From Chthonomonadaceae bacterium (GTDB taxonomy: Bacteria; Armatimonadota; Chthonomonadetes; Chthonomonadales; Chthonomonadaceae): 48,168 bases of DNA. This document shows positions 10,458-20,097 of the stretch, one piece after another. The stretch's first letter is position 1, and each line of letters opens with the position of its first letter. The notes beneath the pieces are model-generated. The model was not told where the DNA came from. It was given only the letters and a program-made list of their open reading frames with translations, and searched no databases. The position numbers and the translations under genes were made by a program. The DNA is taken from positions 1 through 48,168 of the forward strand of contig DASRGZ010000210.1 of the NCBI GenBank assembly GCA_035650735.1, in the 5' to 3' direction.

Positions 10458-10868
10458 ACCCCTCTCTTCCAGGCCGTCCCACGCTCTCGTCCGGGCTTCT
10501 TCGCGTGCTTGCGTCTGTTTGACGTGAGGAATACGCTCCCCTGGAAGTAAAAGAGGCGCTCCTTTCCGACCTTTACCCGTATTCCGAATGCTATCCCGCC
10601 GTCAACGGCGATTTGCTTGCTGCCCCTGATCAAGCAAGAAGGATGCGGCAAGCCTATCTATAATTGCATCCGAAATTGGCTTTACTTGCCCGTTTTCGGG
10701 TGATGTGGCTGCGGCTATCGCCTGTCAGGACGCGCCTGTGCGCTCTCGGCCCTGACCAGGCTCCAGGGCCGGACATACGCTAACGCTCCGGGTTGCCGGG
10801 CGCGCTGCGAGCGCGCCGCCAAACGGTTCGCCAGCGAAGACGAACCTATGCCGAAGGAGGCAAACGCG

Positions 10869-11300
10869 ATGAAAACGCAATGGCTCTCCCTTCCTCTGTT
10901 GGGAATGGGACTGATAGTGGCTCTTCCTGCCGTCGCGCAGGACACGTCGAAGTACGATCCGATTATGGAAAAGCGGGCGGGCTTGCGGGTGCAGTACCTC
11001 CGCGCGCAACGCGAGGCGGCTCACCAGGCCGCGATGCAGCAGGCCACCGAAGGGCAAAACCGTTCCGGGCTGCGCCAGCATCGCGCCCACCGGAAAGATA
11101 CGGGCACTTCCGGGGTGACGATCATCCCGGCGCAGGACAACCCGTACCTGGTCGCTTTTCAGGCCCTGAGCAATAAACGGGCTGACTTGCGCATGAATAT
11201 CACGCGAAAAGGACTGAACGCCGCCTTTTCTGAATGGCTGCGTTACGAGCGCCCGCGCGCCTACCAAAACTACATCATGGACACCGGTGCCAATCGCTAA
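10869..11300 (+). CDS. Secreted hypothetical protein
   Basis: AAGGAGG RBS; signal peptide ending AVA-Q; helical. Confidence 0.7.
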   Translation: MKTQWLSLPLLGMGLIVALPAVAQDTSKYDPIMEKRAGLRVQYLRAQREAAHQAAMQQATEGQNRSGLRQHRAHRKDTGTSGVTIIPAQDNPYLVAFQALSNKRADLRMNITRKGLNAAFSEWLRYERPRAYQNYIMDTGANR

Positions 11301-11313
11301 CGAGGAGAACACC

Positions 11314-11604
11314 ATGAAACATAACGCATCGAGCTTCACGGCTCTGTCTCTCGCGGTAATCCTGTTTGGAACCGCCGGGCTAACGACCTTCGCTCAAACG
11401 ACGGCGAAAAAGCCGTCCACAAAGACGACCACGAAGGCGAGAGCCAAGAAAACGAACGCCGAGGTCAAGTACAAGGCCCACTGCGGCATGATCTATTCCG
11501 CCGCAGACGCCAAGAAATACCATTACATCTGCCCGATGGATCACAAGCCGCTGGTCAAAATCACCAGCGCCATCAAGATCGGGCAGCACGGCGCGAAGAA
11601 ATAG
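11314..11604 (+). CDS. Small secreted Lys-rich protein with heavy-metal-binding-like motif
   Basis: GAGGAG RBS; signal peptide; HCGM...YICPMDHKPL. Confidence 0.7.
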   Translation: MKHNASSFTALSLAVILFGTAGLTTFAQTTAKKPSTKTTTKARAKKTNAEVKYKAHCGMIYSAADAKKYHYICPMDHKPLVKITSAIKIGQHGAKK

Positions 11605-12221: not shown

Positions 12222-13772
12222 ATGAAGCCTGAACACAGATCGCACGCACGCGACGCGGAGACACGGGAGCGCCCGGCAGAGACGCCCGCGCCGCGCACCG
12301 AACCAGCGCCGCGCTACACCTGCCCGATGCACCCGGAGGTCGTGCAAGACCAGCCGGGGCAGTGCCCGAAGTGCGGCATGGACTTGATGCCCATGCAAGA
12401 TGGCGAACATGAGAGGAGGATGCAAGAGCCTCACGACCCCGTGGAGATGACCCGGCAGATGCGAAAGCCCTGGCTCTGGACGAACTTCACGGTCATCACG
12501 CTGGGCGTATGGCTGATGGTCAGTCCGGCGACTTTCGGCTACCGGAGCGCCGCCCTGATCTGGAGCGACATCGGCAGCGGAGCCTTGCTCGTTCTCCTGG
12601 GTGCGATATCCCTGTCGCCGCGCTGGGATTTTATCGGGCGCTGGGGCGCGGCTCTGGTGGGCCTCTGGCTTCAGTTCGCGCCGCTGATCTTCTGGGCGCC
12701 CAGTCCGGTCGCCTATGTTACCGACACGCTCATCGGCGCGCTCACCATCGGCCTGACCATTCTCGTGCCGATGATGCCCGGCATGGCCCATCACATGGAA
12801 ATGATGAAGCCGGGGCCGGAGATACCGCCCGGCTGGACCTACAACCCATCGGCCTGGCTGCAACGCGCGCCGCTCATCGCCACCGGCTTCCTCGGCTGGT
12901 TCATCTCTCGCTACCTGGCCGCCGTGCAGTTGGGCTACACTCCGACCGTCTGGGACCCCTTCTTCGGGGCAGGAACGCAGCGGGTGCTGCACTCGAAGGT
13001 TTCGCAGATGTGGCCGATCTCGGACGCCGGGTTGGGGGCGCTGGCCTATACCATCGAGGCGCTGATGGGCTGGATGGGGGGCACGAACCGCTGGCGGACG
13101 ATGCCCTGGATGGTCACCTTCTTCGGCCTCCTGGTTATCCCGCTGGGCCTGGTGCACATCACGCTGGTCATCTTGCAGCCGGTGGTTGTGGGCTACTGGT
13201 GTACGCTGTGCCTGGCCGCTGCCGCCGTGATGCTGGTGATGATCCCGCTGACGGTGGATGAGGTCGTGGCGATGGTGCAGTTCCTCCAGCGTAGCGTCCG
13301 GGAGGGCAAACCGTTCTGGCGCACCTTCTGGGTGGGCGGCACGTTGGAGGGGGAGGAGAACCAGGACACCCGTTCGCCCCAGTATGGCGCGTCGGTGGCG
13401 GCTTACGGCCCGGCGATGGTCTGGGGCGTCTCCGTCCCCTGGAACCTGCTTCTCTCTGCGGCGCTGGGCCTGTGGCTGATGTTCGCGCCGTCCGTCCTGG
13501 GGACTCACGGAGCGATGGCGGATAGCGACCATCTGGTGGGGGCCGTAGTGCTCACCATTGCGGTCATCACAATGGCGGAGGTCGTCAGGGCCGGACGCTT
13601 CCTGAATGTGCTGCTGGGCCTCTGGATTGTGGCCGCGCCCTGGCTGCTTTCGGGCGCGCCGATGGCGGGTAGGCTGGCGGACGCAGCGGCGGGCATCGCG
13701 CTGATCCTCCTCAGCCTCCCACGGAGCGTTGTGCGCGAGCGCTATGGCGGCTGGGATCGCTACATCGTCTGA
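12222..13772 (+). CDS. Heavy-metal-binding domain + SPW repeats + VKOR-family membrane protein
   Basis: YTCPMHPEV...CPKCGMDL; GxWLxxSP/APW repeats at both ends; VKOR CxxC (WCTLC). Confidence 0.85.
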   Translation: MKPEHRSHARDAETRERPAETPAPRTEPAPRYTCPMHPEVVQDQPGQCPKCGMDLMPMQDGEHERRMQEPHDPVEMTRQMRKPWLWTNFTVITLGVWLMVSPATFGYRSAALIWSDIGSGALLVLLGAISLSPRWDFIGRWGAALVGLWLQFAPLIFWAPSPVAYVTDTLIGALTIGLTILVPMMPGMAHHMEMMKPGPEIPPGWTYNPSAWLQRAPLIATGFLGWFISRYLAAVQLGYTPTVWDPFFGAGTQRVLHSKVSQMWPISDAGLGALAYTIEALMGWMGGTNRWRTMPWMVTFFGLLVIPLGLVHITLVILQPVVVGYWCTLCLAAAAVMLVMIPLTVDEVVAMVQFLQRSVREGKPFWRTFWVGGTLEGEENQDTRSPQYGASVAAYGPAMVWGVSVPWNLLLSAALGLWLMFAPSVLGTHGAMADSDHLVGAVVLTIAVITMAEVVRAGRFLNVLLGLWIVAAPWLLSGAPMAGRLADAAAGIALILLSLPRSVVRERYGGWDRYIV

Positions 13773-13844
13773 ACGGAACGAACCACGCCTCCTGGTGTTG
13801 GCCGGGGGACCTGTGCGCCAACACCACTCATAAGGAGCACGACC

Positions 13845-13943
13845 ATGATGGCAGGGTGCTGGATGTGACTAGTGGGCTGGATAGCGGGGATCGGTCTGAT
13901 CGCCGTGCTCATTATCGTGATTATCAAGTTGCTGAAAAAGTAG
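13845..13943 (+). CDS. 32-aa single-TM microprotein with in-frame TGA, putative selenoprotein: MMAGCWM(U)LVGWIAGIGLIAVLIIVIIKLLKK
   Basis: AAGGAG RBS; CxxU; TGA 13866-13868; TM helix with basic tail; SECIS-like hairpin. Confidence 0.6.
13885..13905 (+). other. Putative bacterial SECIS element for TGA 13866
   Basis: CGGGGATC-GGTCT-GATCGCCG; 7 of 8 pairs; loop starts at +25 from UGA. Confidence 0.5.
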
Positions 13944-14053
13944 TCTCGCCGGGCGCTTCCCGGATGAGGACACTCCGGGCCGCGCGGCCCGGCGACGCGA
14001 TCTCGGTCATGGAGCGTATGGCGCTCGCATGGCCTTACCTAAGGGAACGTTGA

Positions 14054-16546
14054 ATGAGGTTTACAATTCAGAGACGGCTTGTTGCGTGGATTGCGATATC
14101 TCTCCTGTTCGCATTCGGAGCCACCTCTGCCGCTCTCGCTTCTCTGCGGGCTCAGGCCGGGCCTTATCGGGTCGAGATCGCCACCGATCCCGCCGTGATC
14201 CTGGTAGGCCAGCCGACAAAACTGGTCATCCAGATTACCGACTCCGAGGGCAAGCCGGTGGAGGGCGCGCAGGTGCGGGCCATCGCGCAGATGCCGGGGA
14301 TGCCCATGGGTGAACAGGAGGAGACGGCGCTCCCGCAGGCCGGGCAGCCTGGAGTCTATGTGGCTCCGGCGCAGTTTGCCATGGCTGGCAGGTACGAGGC
14401 GGCCATCCAGATTTCCGGGCCGCAGGGTGCCGCCACCGCCAAAATCCCCCTCAAGACAGGACAGAATACCGGCAGCATTGCGGGCGGTACTACCGGAGGG
14501 AGCGCCTATCTGCTCGCCTGGCTGCCCTGGATTCTGGGTGGCCTCGTCCTGGCCTTTATCCTCTACCGGATGCGGCGCACCGGGCAGCGCGTCAATCTGC
14601 GCCCGCTCCTTAACTGGCGGGTTATCGCGGGCATTCTGCTGCTGGTGGCGGTCTATCTCGGCTCGGCCTGGGCGGTGCGCACCTACACGAAGCCGGGCCA
14701 CATGAGCGTCATCGAGGCGCAGGCGATGGACATGACCGCCATGAAGCCGCCGGTGGGCGCATCGCCCGTCGCGGTCATGGCCGCCAAGCGCGAGCCGCTG
14801 GAGTCCACGGTGCAATATACGGGATCCGCCGTCGCGTTCCAGGATCAGGAGGTGACCCCGCGCGTTACCGGAACGATCTCCTGGATGCCTTTCTACCCTG
14901 GGGACCGCGTGCGCCAGGGGCAGATCGTGGCCCGGCTGGATACGAGCGAACTCGCTTCCAGGGCCAGGGAGCAGGCGGCAGGCGTCGCGATGGTCGAGCA
15001 CGCCACGATGATCGCCCAAAAGCAGTATCAGCAGGCGCTCGGAGTCAGGGCGCAGGCCCAAGCCCAGGTGCAGGAAGCCAAAAATGAGGTTGTCGGCGCG
15101 CGCAGTGAGCTGGCGGCGGCCCGGCAGGACGTGACGGCAGCCCAAGACGAGCGCGCCGGCGCGCTGGCCGATCTGGAAAGCGCGCAGACGGCCATTACCG
15201 ACGCTCAGGCCCAGCTTGCGGCGGCGCAGGCCGATCAGAATTACTGGCGGGAACAGCTCAAGCGCTCCCAGGAGCTAGTCCAGAGTGGAGCCCTTTCACG
15301 GCAGGCGTACCAGCAAGACCAGGCGCAGGCGGAGAACGCCAACGCCAAAGTGCGCCAGGCCCAGGCGCGCATCCAGCAGGCGAACGCCGCCGTGCGCGCC
15401 GCGCAATCCCGCATCAAGAAAGCGGAGGCTCTGATCGCCGGGGCGCAGGCGAAGGTGGCCCAGATGCAGGCGAAGGTCGAGTCCCGCCAGGCCAGAGTGG
15501 CGCAGGCGCAGGATAATGCGCGCGCGCTGGCCGCGGCGGCGGAGGCTGCCGAGCATGAAATTGCGCACACGCAGGCGGGCGTGCGGCAGGCCCAGGCGCA
15601 ATGGAATACCGCCCGCGTGATCGTCGGCTACACCGAGATTCGGGCCGAAGTGGACGGCGTTGTTACCCAGCGCCTTGTCAGCCCCGGCCAGCTTGTCCAG
15701 CCGGGCCAGGCGCTTCTGCGTATCTCCCAGATCCGCCCGATCCGGCTCCAGGCCAACGTCGCCGAAAGCGACCTCCCGAACATCCAGGTCGGCAGCCGCG
15801 TGCGCGCGTGGACGATGAAAGATTCAAAGCATCCGGTGGAGGCGCGGGTCAGCGCCGTCTTCCCGGCGGCGGACCCCCAATCGCGCACCTCCATCGTGGA
15901 GGCCATTCTGGCGAATACGGATCGCCGCTTCCTGCCCGGCGACTATATCACCATGAGCATCACCACAGGCCAGAGCCGGAACGCGCTCGTCGTGCCGGCC
16001 AGCGCCATTGTCTGGCAGCCCAAAGCCACCAGCGATGTGCTGGCGACCGCGCAGACGCCTTCCGTCTGGGTCATTACCGCCGGCCAGCCGGAAAAGACAG
16101 TCTACACCTGCACCATGCACCTGCAGGTCAAACAGGATAAGCCCGGCAAATGCCCCATATGAGGATGGGAGCTAACCCCGCAGGTCGCGGGAGGAAAGTG
16201 GCGGGCACACCTGGTTCCCGTCACAGTTGGATTGGTCAATGCTCAGTATGTGGAGATACGTAACGGGCTGGAGGAGGGGGCGCAGGTGATCTATGCCGGG
16301 CAGGAGTCGCTCCATGAGGGCGATCCGGTCGTCCCGGCGGAGTGGGGGCTGTCGGGGCCGCTCACGCTGCCGCCGGCGCCCGGCGCGGTGGCGCCCCGCA
16401 CAGAGGCGCCCGGCACGGTCTATACCTGCCCGATGCACCCGGAGGTGAGGTCGGACAAGCCCGGTAAATGCCCCAAGTGCGGCATGGATTTAGTCCCGAT
16501 GAAGCTGGGCAATACGGGCATGAGCGGCATGGGAGGCGCGCGATGA
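14054..16546 (+). CDS. RND periplasmic adaptor (830 aa) with YtkA/FixH-like N-domain, two metal-binding domains and putative Sec at TGA 16160-16162
   Basis: ORFs 14054-16162 and 16232-16546 share a frame with no other stop; YTCTMH...KCPI*GWEL aligns with the C-terminal YTCPMH...KCPKCGMDL; MFP motifs on both sides of the TGA. Confidence 0.85.
16177..16191 (+). other. Putative bacterial SECIS element for TGA 16160
   Basis: CCCGC-AGGTC-GCGGG; GCAGGTC at +18..+24, as in the E. coli fdhF SECIS apex (+16..+22). Confidence 0.7.
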
Positions 16547-19500
16547 GCAGCCCTTCGCCTCCCTCCCCACCGCCGGGCCGCCGAGCGCGCTTTGAGCAGC
16601 AGGCAGTCAACCCCCTGCACATGATCCATAAGTGGAGCATCGAGCACCCGTATGTGATCATAGCCTTCTACTTCGCGGTTGTGGCCCTGGCCGTCATCGG
16701 CATGACGTATGCCATTCCGCGCCGGTTCGCGCCCTACGTGCCCAGCCCGATGGTCGGCGTGGTGACGATGATGCCGGGGCTTTCCGCCCAGGAGATGGAG
16801 CTCTACGTCAGCAAGCCGATTGAGGAGCAGCTTATCAACGTCAAAGACCTGCATTACGTGCGCAGCACCTCCCAGGACGGCTTCTCCCTCGTCATCCTGG
16901 AGTTCAACTACGGCACGGACATTAAGAAGGCGGTCGTGGACGTGCAGGCGCTCCTCAATGTCGTGCAGGCCAACCTGCCCAGCACGGGCGCGAACCTCAA
17001 GCCCTCCTACGTCATTCCGGTGGACCCGCTCAACTTGCCCATCCTTGCGCTGTCGCTGACGGGCGACCCGGACAAAGGCTGGACGCCCGCCAAACTCCGA
17101 GAGTTCGCGGATAACACCGTCATCAACCGGATAAAGACCCTCTCGGCGGTCAACTCCGTGGTGGTGTTTGGCGGCTATCGGCGGCAGTTGCAGGTGATAG
17201 TGGACCGGAACAAGCTGGCGGCTTACGGCCTCTCTATTCTGGATGTCCGAAACGCGATTGACCGCTACAACGTGAGCCGTCCCGCCGGAACGCTCACCTC
17301 GGACACGCGGGAGGGCATCATCCGCATAGATACGCGGGCGCAGAGCGCCGAGGACGTGCTGAACTATCCCATCGCCAGCATCGGCGGCGCGGCCTCCGGT
17401 TCACCTTCTGCCGCATCAGGAAGCGGCATCGGGGCGGGCGGCATGGGCGGCGGAGGGATGAGCGGCGCACCCACTACTCTCCTCTCCCCTATTCTTGGGG
17501 GAGGGGCTGGGGATGGGGGACTGAACTTTCTCAACCATCCCCGCGTCGTCTACGTGCGCGATGTCGCCCGCGTGGTGGATGGCTACTGGGAGCGGCGCAG
17601 CGCCTACCACTTCCTGGATCACGCGCCGGGAACGGCAGGCCAGGTCGTTCCCTCCATCGAGGTCTCGGTCATCCAGGACCCGGCGGCAAGCTCCTACTAC
17701 GTCGTGCCCGCCGTCAACGGCGTGCTGCGCCAACTGGAGCGGGAGTATCCGGGCATCCATTTCCGGGCCGCCTACGACAACGCCCAGTTCGTCGAAATCT
17801 TGTTTCACAACGTCTGGCATGAACTAGGTATCGCCATTTTGCTGACCGCCATCACGGTGCTCTTCTTCCTGGGCGAGTGGCGAGGGACGCTCATCGCGCT
17901 CATCACCGTGCCTACCTCCCTGGCGATGGCAGTCCTCATGATGCTGCCGTTTCATATGACCTTCAACAGCGGCACGCTCATCGGCCTGCTGCTCGTCATC
18001 GGTCGCCTGGTGGATGACACGATCATAGACATCCACTCCGTAGAGCGGCACCTGCGGATGGGCAAAGATCCCAAGACCGCCACCATTGACGGCATCGCGG
18101 AAGTGCGCCTGGCGGTGCTGGCCTCTACCTTGATGCTGGTGCTGGCGCTCGTGCCGCTCCTGTTCTGCGGAGGCATCACGCAGTTGATGTTCGTGGAGCT
18201 GGTCTGGCCGATCATCTTCGGGCTGCTAGCCTCCATGCTCGTCTCGTTTACCCTGACGGCGCTGCTCTGCGCGAACTGGCTGCGGCACGAGGAGGCGCGC
18301 GAGGCCGACCGCCGCCATCCCCTCTTGCGCTGGATCTATGTGCTGGTGGACCCGTTCCAGCGGCTCCTCGCCCGGCTGGAGAGCGGCTACGCGCGCACGA
18401 TCCGGGGGATGCTCAAGAACCGGTTCTGGAACTTCGCGCGCATCGTCGCGACGGTCATCATCGGCTTCACCTTCTACAACTTCATCGGAAGCGAAATGAT
18501 GCCCCTTGCCGATGTGGGCCAGGCCAACGGCTTCCTGGAGATGCAGCCCGGCACCTCCTTTGCCCAGACGGAGCGCGCCGTCAAGCAACTCGAACAGATT
18601 ATGCTCAGGCACCCCGAGCTGGAGCGCGCCTCCATCGAGATCGGCACGGAGAGCATGCTCGAGACCTGGAACCCCTACTTCACCGGCTACCAGATGCCGC
18701 AGGTGAACGGGGCCTCGATGATGCTGACCTTCTCCGACAAGGACGCGCGCCGGCGCGACATCTGGCAGATAATGGATGCCATCCAACGGGAGGCGATGGC
18801 GACCATTCCGGGCATTCGCCGCCTCCAGATCAAGGAGATGGGCTCCGATGTCATGGCGACGGCGGCGGCCCCGATCCATCTGGTACTCTCCGGCCCGGAC
18901 CTCCACGTCCTCAATCAACTGGGCCAGCGCACCTTAGACATCGCCAACCACACCGACGGCATGGTGCAGGCGGCGACGACCTGGACGATGGGCGTGCCGG
19001 ACTACGAGATCCGGGTGGACCCGGCCAGGGCGCAGGAACTGGGCCTCTCGCCGGAGGAGATCTCCCAGCAAGCCTACTACGCGCTGCGCGGCGGCCTGAC
19101 CAACGAGTTCTATCGCCTGCCCAACCTGCGCCAGAACACGATCCTGGTGCGCTACGAGCCGGAGCAGCGCCGGAGCCTGCAAGACCTGGAGCAGCTCTAC
19201 ATCACGGGCGCCAATGGGCGGCAGGTGCCGTTAAAGAGCGTGGCGACGGTCGAGCCGCGCCTGGCCCCGACCGTGATCGAGCACGACGGGCTGCGGCGCG
19301 TCATCGGCGTCACCGGCTACTACCGGAAATGGGGACCGCCCTCGATGGACTTAGGCATGGAAGTGATGATGAAGGCAATGGACAGCCTGAACTTCCCGCC
19401 CGGCTATAACATCGAGATGCGCGGCGACATGACCCAGATGATGGATAGCTTCCGTCGCCTCCTGTACGGGCTGGTGCTGGCGCTTATCTTCATGTACCTG

Positions 19501-20097
19501 GTGCTGGTAGCCCAGTTCCGGGGTTTCCTCCAACCGTTCCAGATGATCGCCTCGCTTCCATTGGAGTTAGCGGGCGTGTTCACGGCGCTGTGGCTGGCGC
19601 ATCAGGCGTTCTCGACCGTCTCCATCATGGCGGTGATCGTGCTTACGGGCATGGACATCACGACCGCCATCCTGATGATAGACATGATTATGCGCTACCG
19701 CGACCGGGGCGTGCCGCGCGATCAGGCGGTGGAGGAAGCGGCGCCGCAGCGGCTGCGGCCTATCCTGATGACTGCGATGATTACGATCATCGTCATGGTG
19801 CCGGTGGCTTTCTTCCCAAAGACAGGGCTGGATGCCTATCAGCCGCTCGGCACGACCATCCTCGGCGGCTTGACCGTCGGGACGCTTCTGAGCCTGTTGG
19901 ACATCCCGATCATGCATACCTACGTGGACGATCTCATCCGCTGGCTGAACAAGACGTTCCTGGGGCGGGAGTGGCACTGGCCGGTGATCCGGCAGGGAGA
20001 AGGCGAGCCTGAGCCCGCGCACGTCGCGACAGTGGAGAGCAGCAACGGCGCCGGCGCTTCCATTTCAGAGAGGGAGGCGCGCCATGAGACGACTTGA
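16543..20097 (+). CDS. RND efflux permease (AcrB/CusA superfamily), divergent
   Basis: ATGA overlap with adaptor stop; MPGLSAQEMELYVSKPIEE, LVDD, RLRPILMT motifs; ~1184 aa. Confidence 0.93.
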   Translation: MSSPSPPSPPPGRRARFEQQAVNPLHMIHKWSIEHPYVIIAFYFAVVALAVIGMTYAIPRRFAPYVPSPMVGVVTMMPGLSAQEMELYVSKPIEEQLINVKDLHYVRSTSQDGFSLVILEFNYGTDIKKAVVDVQALLNVVQANLPSTGANLKPSYVIPVDPLNLPILALSLTGDPDKGWTPAKLREFADNTVINRIKTLSAVNSVVVFGGYRRQLQVIVDRNKLAAYGLSILDVRNAIDRYNVSRPAGTLTSDTREGIIRIDTRAQSAEDVLNYPIASIGGAASGSPSAASGSGIGAGGMGGGGMSGAPTTLLSPILGGGAGDGGLNFLNHPRVVYVRDVARVVDGYWERRSAYHFLDHAPGTAGQVVPSIEVSVIQDPAASSYYVVPAVNGVLRQLEREYPGIHFRAAYDNAQFVEILFHNVWHELGIAILLTAITVLFFLGEWRGTLIALITVPTSLAMAVLMMLPFHMTFNSGTLIGLLLVIGRLVDDTIIDIHSVERHLRMGKDPKTATIDGIAEVRLAVLASTLMLVLALVPLLFCGGITQLMFVELVWPIIFGLLASMLVSFTLTALLCANWLRHEEAREADRRHPLLRWIYVLVDPFQRLLARLESGYARTIRGMLKNRFWNFARIVATVIIGFTFYNFIGSEMMPLADVGQANGFLEMQPGTSFAQTERAVKQLEQIMLRHPELERASIEIGTESMLETWNPYFTGYQMPQVNGASMMLTFSDKDARRRDIWQIMDAIQREAMATIPGIRRLQIKEMGSDVMATAAAPIHLVLSGPDLHVLNQLGQRTLDIANHTDGMVQAATTWTMGVPDYEIRVDPARAQELGLSPEEISQQAYYALRGGLTNEFYRLPNLRQNTILVRYEPEQRRSLQDLEQLYITGANGRQVPLKSVATVEPRLAPTVIEHDGLRRVIGVTGYYRKWGPPSMDLGMEVMMKAMDSLNFPPGYNIEMRGDMTQMMDSFRRLLYGLVLALIFMYLVLVAQFRGFLQPFQMIASLPLELAGVFTALWLAHQAFSTVSIMAVIVLTGMDITTAILMIDMIMRYRDRGVPRDQAVEEAAPQRLRPILMTAMITIIVMVPVAFFPKTGLDAYQPLGTTILGGLTVGTLLSLLDIPIMHTYVDDLIRWLNKTFLGREWHWPVIRQGEGEPEPAHVATVESSNGAGASISEREARHETT

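Follow-up and report, generated by a model that had tools for sequence, protein, structure and literature searches.

Organization of the locus

The window, that is, the whole stretch of 48,168 nucleotides analyzed in this work, carries on its forward strand, together with the adjoining genes described next, a gene of only 32 codons (13845..13943) placed within a cluster of metal-related genes. A Shine-Dalgarno sequence, AAGGAG (13832..13837), lies 7 nt before the ATG at 13845, and a second in-frame ATG at 13848 represents a possible alternative start. The predicted product is MMAGCWM-U-LVGWIAGIGLIAVLIIVIIKLLKK, where U stands for the selenocysteine (Sec) that we infer from the TGA at 13866-13868; the 24 codons coding for LVGWIAGIGLIAVLIIVIIKLLKK separate this TGA from the TAG at 13941-13943. 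The CWMU sequence (13857..13868), a CxxU motif, is followed by a predicted transmembrane helix (13869..13925), supported by hydropathy and by the AlphaFold model of a homolog and embedding a conserved GxxxG (G11, G15), and then by a basic tail, KLLKK (13926..13940), predicted to be cytoplasmic. The best 19-residue segment downstream of the TGA has a mean Kyte-Doolittle value of 3.0. Folding reveals a candidate bacterial SECIS hairpin embedded in the coding sequence (13884..13906), whose invariant core spans 13887-13901. Having seven codons before the TGA and 24 after it, the gene is invisible to gene callers. The ribosome-binding site, the MMAGCWM-TGA head, the helix, and the basic tail noted in the preliminary description of this DNA were all confirmed.

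The gene is flanked upstream by a membrane protein in which HMBD, VKOR, and SPW domains are fused (12222..13772) and downstream by a YtkA/HlyD/HMBD RND adaptor (14054..16546), which has 830 aa if its own TGA (16160-16162) is read as Sec; an AcrB/CusA-family RND pump (16468..20097; Pfam PF00873) follows. These assignments are based on Pfam. Further upstream, positions 10848-11604 encode two small proteins that are predicted to be secreted and do not match any Pfam family: a homolog of the first occurs upstream of a truncated copy of the short gene in another genome (G306, see below), and the second contains two Cys/His/Met motifs. A permease-start remnant that might have occupied positions 13944-14053 was rejected as not significant (512 of 2000 shuffles). 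The scan for promoters and terminators remained at chance level, and Rfam returned nothing relevant.

The 6.5-Mb genome was then screened for short frames with a Shine-Dalgarno sequence and an ATG, ended by a stop and followed by 19-59 open codons. Among 252 such frames ended by TGA, a transmembrane-grade helix follows the stop at a single locus (with two alternative starts), which is the window gene; the same-genome controls gave none among 76 TAA frames and none among 242 TAG frames. The arrangement of Shine-Dalgarno sequence, short frame, TGA, and helix is not due to chance. Nor does the TGA result from an assembly error: contigs from three of the four sequencing runs, two of which may be the source of the window DNA, cross it without difference (the fourth run has no coverage here), and L090, a separate contig from a metagenome, matches the window base for base over 6038 bases.

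Distribution of the homologs and codon at the probable selenocysteine position

The six-frame search of 401 genomes of the phylum disclosed two true homologs, one in a genome of the same order and another family (G363) and one in a genome of another order (G110), sharing 44-75% identity with the window peptide and both having TGA at the same codon; four of the seven matches were dropped as unrelated, being long ORFs or lacking a matching frame. The family is rare, as it was found in three of the 401 genomes. A metagenome scan, performed with a pattern leaving the Sec codon free as TGN, gave nine matches: five contigs sharing one sequence (the L085 type), a further sequence (L088), the window copy, and two unrelated matches (L089 and L093), which were dropped because they have TGG at this column and no helix after it. 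Both the L085-type and the L088 sequences have TGA. The five distinct full-length DNA homologs (the window gene and the four further sequences in which it is conserved), which come from two families within a single order, from a second order, and from two types of metagenome contig, thus all exhibit TGA at the Sec codon. The same codon is found in the truncated G306 copy and in a paralog of G110 (L104 1-115, minus strand), which has the same head (MPMGGMCWM-TGA) and a different, longer tail, with a hydrophobic stretch after the TGA that runs off the contig and no GGUCU core; in the search that revealed it, the nine weakest of 12 places were dropped (E 0.02-0.05; not each was inspected). Neither TAA nor TAG occurs at this codon in any of the seven DNA copies.

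Four homologs are available as database proteins, with CWMC (P0004), CPMC (P0003), YPMC (P0010), and CPMW (P0011) in place of CWMU; hence, the Sec column, read here from proteins and not from codons, is occupied by Cys in three of them and by Trp in one. The Cys homologs are single continuous proteins. Given the Trp of P0011 and the fact that P0010 does not have the first Cys of the motif, the two-ligand motif appears to be dispensable in some members. The idea, put forward in the preliminary description, of a CxxU micro-selenoprotein rather than a TGG codon changed to TGA is supported by this distribution (TGA in five of five DNA homologs, Cys in three and Trp in one of four proteins).

With wider profiles, neither the 401 genomes of the phylum nor the 68 genomes of the class yielded an additional clear member; the matches in G320, G003, and G335 were dropped as lying inside long ORFs (those in G320 and G335 were not looked at individually). 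All eight viral matches (two with TGA, four with Trp, and two with Cys) were discarded as devoid of a helix, and a pattern match in G019 as out of frame. The plasmid search and five genomes reached through named loci gave no match, the DNA search of 41 relatives matched only other parts of the query, and no fused form emerged among 8000 longer candidates, which is weak evidence. At least three further homolog-bearing contigs exist in soil and mine runs; the base at their Sec codon was not read, and they were left out of the TGA counts. The Atlas scores (0.82-0.84), all to unnamed clusters, are to be regarded as leads only.

The preliminary description had proposed, as a check, that the peptide be sought upstream of homologous adaptors and its codon 8 compared there. 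No similar small ORF was found at the 50 other adaptor loci screened, several of which are shortened by contig ends, and the only trace is the G306 copy, which the screen missed because it required a helix. The TGA is kept in the homologs found at other loci. The G306 genome harbors the closest relative of the window's adaptor, and its copy of the short gene (L127 10115-10137, minus strand) retains MMAGCWM-TGA, identical to the window at 23 of 24 bases, with a TAA two codons after the TGA and neither a helix nor a G-loop hairpin; a GTG overlapping its TGA may be where an ArsP permease starts. Since a frame led by a Shine-Dalgarno sequence just upstream is also cut short, after a signal-peptide-like stretch, the G306 copy is likely a deletion remnant, although an undatable one that a leader-peptide reading would fit too.

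Hairpin structure and selection on the reading frame

The hairpin with a GGUCU loop at +25, already noticed in the preliminary description, was recovered by folding, with eight pairs, one G-G mismatch, and the loop starting 25 nt after the TGA. In the bacterial SECIS model of PMC13188914, the loop has 3-9 nt with a G at loop position 1-2 and lies 16-37 nt after the UGA, with an energy of -7.5 or lower; the window hairpin (GGUCU, +25, -14.4) agrees with this model, and those of L085 and L088 (-7.0 and -7.3, respectively, when folded from +12) fall short of its energy cut-off. Taken alone, the window hairpin is unremarkable (z -1.6 to -1.8), and a loose bacterial SECIS rule is passed by 35% of 2000 random TGA sites.

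The 15-nt hairpin core, which codes for GIGLI, is identical in all five DNA homologs. Degenerate codons are identical in five of five cases within the core and in none of the three invariant-residue codons outside it (pairwise 50/0 vs. 36/48; Fisher p 0.018, a value that overstates the difference because the five sequences are related and not independent). Given the peptide and the codon use of the genome, the exact core has a probability of 0.005; when the peptide is kept fixed and synonymous codons are redrawn, 3-10% of the sequences satisfy the SECIS rule and 0.9-3% reach an equally good fold. The four core pairs reach probabilities of 0.79-0.99 when folded from +12 and never vary, with no compensatory change; the register of the lower stem differs from one homolog to another, and when the whole region is folded without constraints, the G110, L085, and L088 homologs prefer other registers.

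The frame itself is also maintained. Downstream of the TGA, it remains open for 24-28 codons in all five homologs, with a helix hydropathy of 2.5-3.1, and the changes in this part fall mostly at the third position (26, vs. 18 and 10 at the other two), the residues remaining hydrophobic. Purine-rich stretches resembling a Shine-Dalgarno sequence also occur 5' of the G363, G110, and L088 homologs.

Selenocysteine machinery and other likely selenoproteins of the genome

The genome to which the window belongs (G000) possesses selA, selB, a selD with an in-frame TGA, and a tRNA-Sec, which is its only tRNA with a TCA anticodon. TGA otherwise behaves as a normal stop, ending 977 of 2707 long ORFs, and RF2 is present. 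Similarly, selA, selB, and tRNA-Sec are present in G363, and selA and selB in G110, in whose genome (85% complete) a tRNA-Sec over the cut-off was not found. The co-occurrence of these genes with the family is uninformative, because selA is over the cut-off in 50 of the 68 genomes of the class.

A coding-potential screen of the window genome detected 29 TGA sites with a Cys-type motif, 13 of which were chosen by eye as likely selenoproteins; we take these to include a thioredoxin-like UxxC protein, an AhpD-like CxxU protein, an HMA UxxC protein, SelD, and others. The loose hairpin rule is passed by 11 of the 13, several of them having, like the short gene, G(G/U)U loops at +17 to +25. Outside the window, likely selenoprotein genes, about a dozen in all, lie on contigs C27, C64 (two), C79, C83, C142, C143, C151, C170, C220, and C224; for those of C143 (RTCPV-U-KYG) and C224 (ERC-U-VFAG), no resemblance to nameable families was seen.

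On the basis of the sequence comparisons, the interpretation of the TGA as a selenocysteine codon is strongly supported, and SelB very probably binds the GGUCU hairpin and inserts Sec.

Membrane topology

AlphaFold predicts the G110 peptide (entered as a 7-row alignment, with U replaced by C) to be a single helix spanning residues 6-33, with a mean pLDDT of 85.9 and the CxxU motif in its first turn. It is known that basic residues tend to lie on the cytoplasmic side of the membrane (the positive-inside rule). In the window peptide, the segment preceding the helix is uncharged and the one following it contains three lysines, and the two-helix homologs have a Met/Gly-rich loop, ending with CPMC, between the helices and basic residues at both ends. 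Following this rule, the motif is predicted to face the periplasm, in agreement with the earlier proposal that CWMU lies outside the membrane, and it is quite probable that the helix inserts with its N-terminus out and its C-terminus in. The GxxxG motif is present in eight of nine members and replaced by AxxxG in the ninth; GxxxG might drive dimerization, in which case two CxxU heads would be brought together.

Gene neighborhoods

The organization of the surrounding genes is heterogeneous. In the window, the micropeptide gene is preceded by the HMBD-VKOR-SPW protein and followed by the RND adaptor and the pump. In G363, the order is a methyltransferase-like protein, a small membrane ORF, the peptide, a CopZ-like protein, a double HMBD protein, MerR, and an RND pump. 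The small membrane ORF of G363 (L124 ~900-1060), just upstream of the micropeptide, is Met/Gly/Cys-rich and has a Met/Gly-rich tail with two GC(G)M motifs, and the CopZ-like protein directly after the micropeptide (L124 ~1475-2057), predicted to be secreted, has an in-frame GLH-TGA-GGC (UxxC) and a strong hairpin. The L085-type contigs carry a large Met-rich protein, a cytochrome c-like protein, the peptide, and an ArsP permease, and in L088 the peptide is followed by the same permease. The G110 paralog is preceded by a copper-type P1B-ATPase that combines cupredoxin, HMA, and YHS domains; the main G110 copy is placed among general stress genes, with no clear metal operon and with a plastocyanin-like gene ~1 kb away. 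On the whole, five of the six copies are found in metal clusters, no single partner is constant, and the gene after the micropeptide is a likely selenoprotein in two of five cases (G000 and G363).

The Sec-bearing adaptor of the window deserves a separate mention. Its TGA (16160-16162) corresponds to the last Cys of the HMBD motif (KCPI-U-GW) and is followed by a hairpin (16177-16191) with an AGGUC loop at +20; among 25 loci of the class, this codon is TGA in eight and TGC in 17. Its named relatives belong mostly to Armatimonadota.

Comparison with known families

No match over the cut-off was obtained in Pfam (six members scanned) or NCBIfam (nine members scanned), and the best PDB chain reached only E 0.049. 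Table 1 of PMC13188914 (2026), which lists 119 prokaryotic selenoprotein families without protein lengths, has no entry that could be matched to the micropeptide family or to the RND adaptor. A literature search, whose coverage excluded most subscription journals, gave no report of the micropeptide family.

The TGA aligned to Cys, the CxxU motif, the Sec machinery, and the hairpin within the coding sequence, with a G-first apical loop 16-37 nt downstream, are shared with the SelB-dependent CxxU selenoproteins, such as the SelW-like (PF10262) and AhpD-like ones (PMC13188914, Table 1), so that the micropeptide is best classified, by sequence, as an unnamed and minimal variant of this kind. Unlike SelW-like and AhpD-like proteins, the family has no predicted thioredoxin-like or globular fold, being made up of a head of 7-17 residues and one helix; the SelW of C. 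jejuni, with 80 aa according to bioRxiv 10.1101/2022.11.09.515450, is more than twice as long as the micropeptide. For several selenoproteins linked to transport, it has also been suggested that Sec serves as a ligand for metals (PMC13188914; bioRxiv 10.1101/2022.07.06.499078). The micropeptide resembles those described in Table 1 of the former and in the Haft and Gwadz preprint in having Sec at a Cys position of a probable soft-metal site and a location in metal transport clusters; it differs from them in that it does not match their models, is far smaller, and is not a transporter. According to PMC7558416, the ligands at sites of Cu(I) trafficking include CxxC and Met and, in some cases, Trp, and the clustering of Met, Cys, and Trp on the predicted extracytoplasmic side, in copper-type gene clusters, recalls CusF and the S2 site of CupA described there; the likeness concerns the ligand type only, since the micropeptide has neither a folded domain nor a sequence match to these proteins.

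Another very small membrane protein with a comparable (CxxC) motif is the CD1871A family CXXC motif protein (NF040920). Its HMM matched none of nine family members at E up to 10. In NF040920 the motif follows the helix, whereas in the micropeptide CxxU precedes it.

Putative function and alternative explanations

Taken together, these data lead us to propose that the locus is a real Sec gene coding for a single-helix, N-out microprotein whose Met-rich CxxU head binds a soft metal, most probably Cu(I); we assign to this reading as a whole a probability of roughly 0.52. In such a scenario, SelB acting on the GGUCU hairpin would direct Sec to the TGA, giving rise to the 32-residue product, whose single helix would enter the inner membrane and expose the head toward the periplasm. 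Here, Cys5, Sec8, and the nearby Met residues may hold Cu(I), either buffering the metal at the membrane surface or handing it over to neighboring exporters, such as the ArsP-type permease, the HMA/HMBD proteins, or the RND adaptor, with no fixed partner. That these residues form a putative Cu(I)/Ag(I)-type site with a buffering or delivering role is, in our opinion, somewhat better than an even bet.

Among the alternatives, a redox role fares best, even though we consider it unlikely. The CxxU motif might work as a selenenyl-sulfide couple exchanging electrons with a periplasmic disulfide system, e.g., the VKOR-domain neighbor, without acting as a metal ligand. Indeed, PMC13188914 describes CxxU/UxxC mostly as redox motifs, the motif is located at the first turn of the predicted helix, and the gene immediately upstream in the window encodes a VKOR domain. 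However, the genes listed around the other homologs (part of the neighbors having been scanned) included no VKOR gene; Met-rich flanks and metal-export neighbors recur instead, and P0010 does not have the first Cys.

A still less probable possibility is that the TGA really stops translation, or does so conditionally, and that a Met/Cys-rich leader of 7-17 residues regulates the gene behind it through translational coupling or polarity, read-through into the helix being secondary. This might explain why G306 keeps only MMAGCWM-TGA, overlapping the possible permease start, and it is compatible with the ATG or GTG found directly after the TGA in G110, L085, and L088 and with the likely selenoprotein nature of the next gene in G000 and G363. 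On the other hand, G363 has no ATG, GTG, or TTG from the TGA to mid-helix, the Cys homologs extend through the motif without interruption, none of the seven DNA copies has exchanged the TGA for another stop, and the G306 copy resembles, in our interpretation, a deletion remnant.

AcrZ is a small protein of E. coli bound to AcrB, and the preliminary description had suggested that the micropeptide might be a comparable accessory helix, docking on the neighboring RND pump and tuning it. The single helix with a basic tail and the pump genes downstream in G000 and G363 are in agreement with this suggestion, which nevertheless turned out to be weak and which we regard as improbable: an RND pump is present in the fetched DNA of only two of five homologs, no RND gene occurs around G110 (12.9 kb), the L085 type (~3 kb on each side), or L088 (a 2-kb contig), no similar small ORF was found upstream at the 50 other adaptor loci screened, some of them shortened by contig ends, and the members scanned against Pfam and NCBIfam did not match the AcrZ family. 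Unlike AcrZ, the micropeptide carries a metal/redox motif. Lastly, a TGG-to-TGA nonsense mutation, a sequencing error, or a Trp under a changed genetic code, for which the Trp of P0011 (codon unread) might speak, is largely refuted and very improbable, given a TGA common to five divergent intact homologs and confirmed by independent contigs, in a genome where TGA is a normal stop, RF2 is present, and the sole TCA-anticodon tRNA is tRNA-Sec.

Returning to the soft-metal reading, a broader version of it, which we consider doubtful, would have Sec read-through also gate the selenium-dependent metal-export genes that lie behind; the 32-residue selenoprotein would then possibly be the smallest in bacteria and the founder of a family of Cu(I)-capturing, Met-rich CxxU proteins. 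If this were true, the selenium supply would switch an entire metal-efflux unit containing several ligands of the Sec type. The micropeptide beside a Sec-bearing RND adaptor would connect metal efflux with selenium in these uncultured organisms. That Sec can apparently be used in a protein consisting of hardly more than a single helix suggests that a class of micro-selenoproteins has been hidden so far. Moreover, what Sec contributes to metal sites is a question for non-catalytic selenoproteins in general, and the natural Cys twin (CWMC), together with a length accessible to chemical synthesis, may make this family a minimal system for establishing what Sec adds to such a site.
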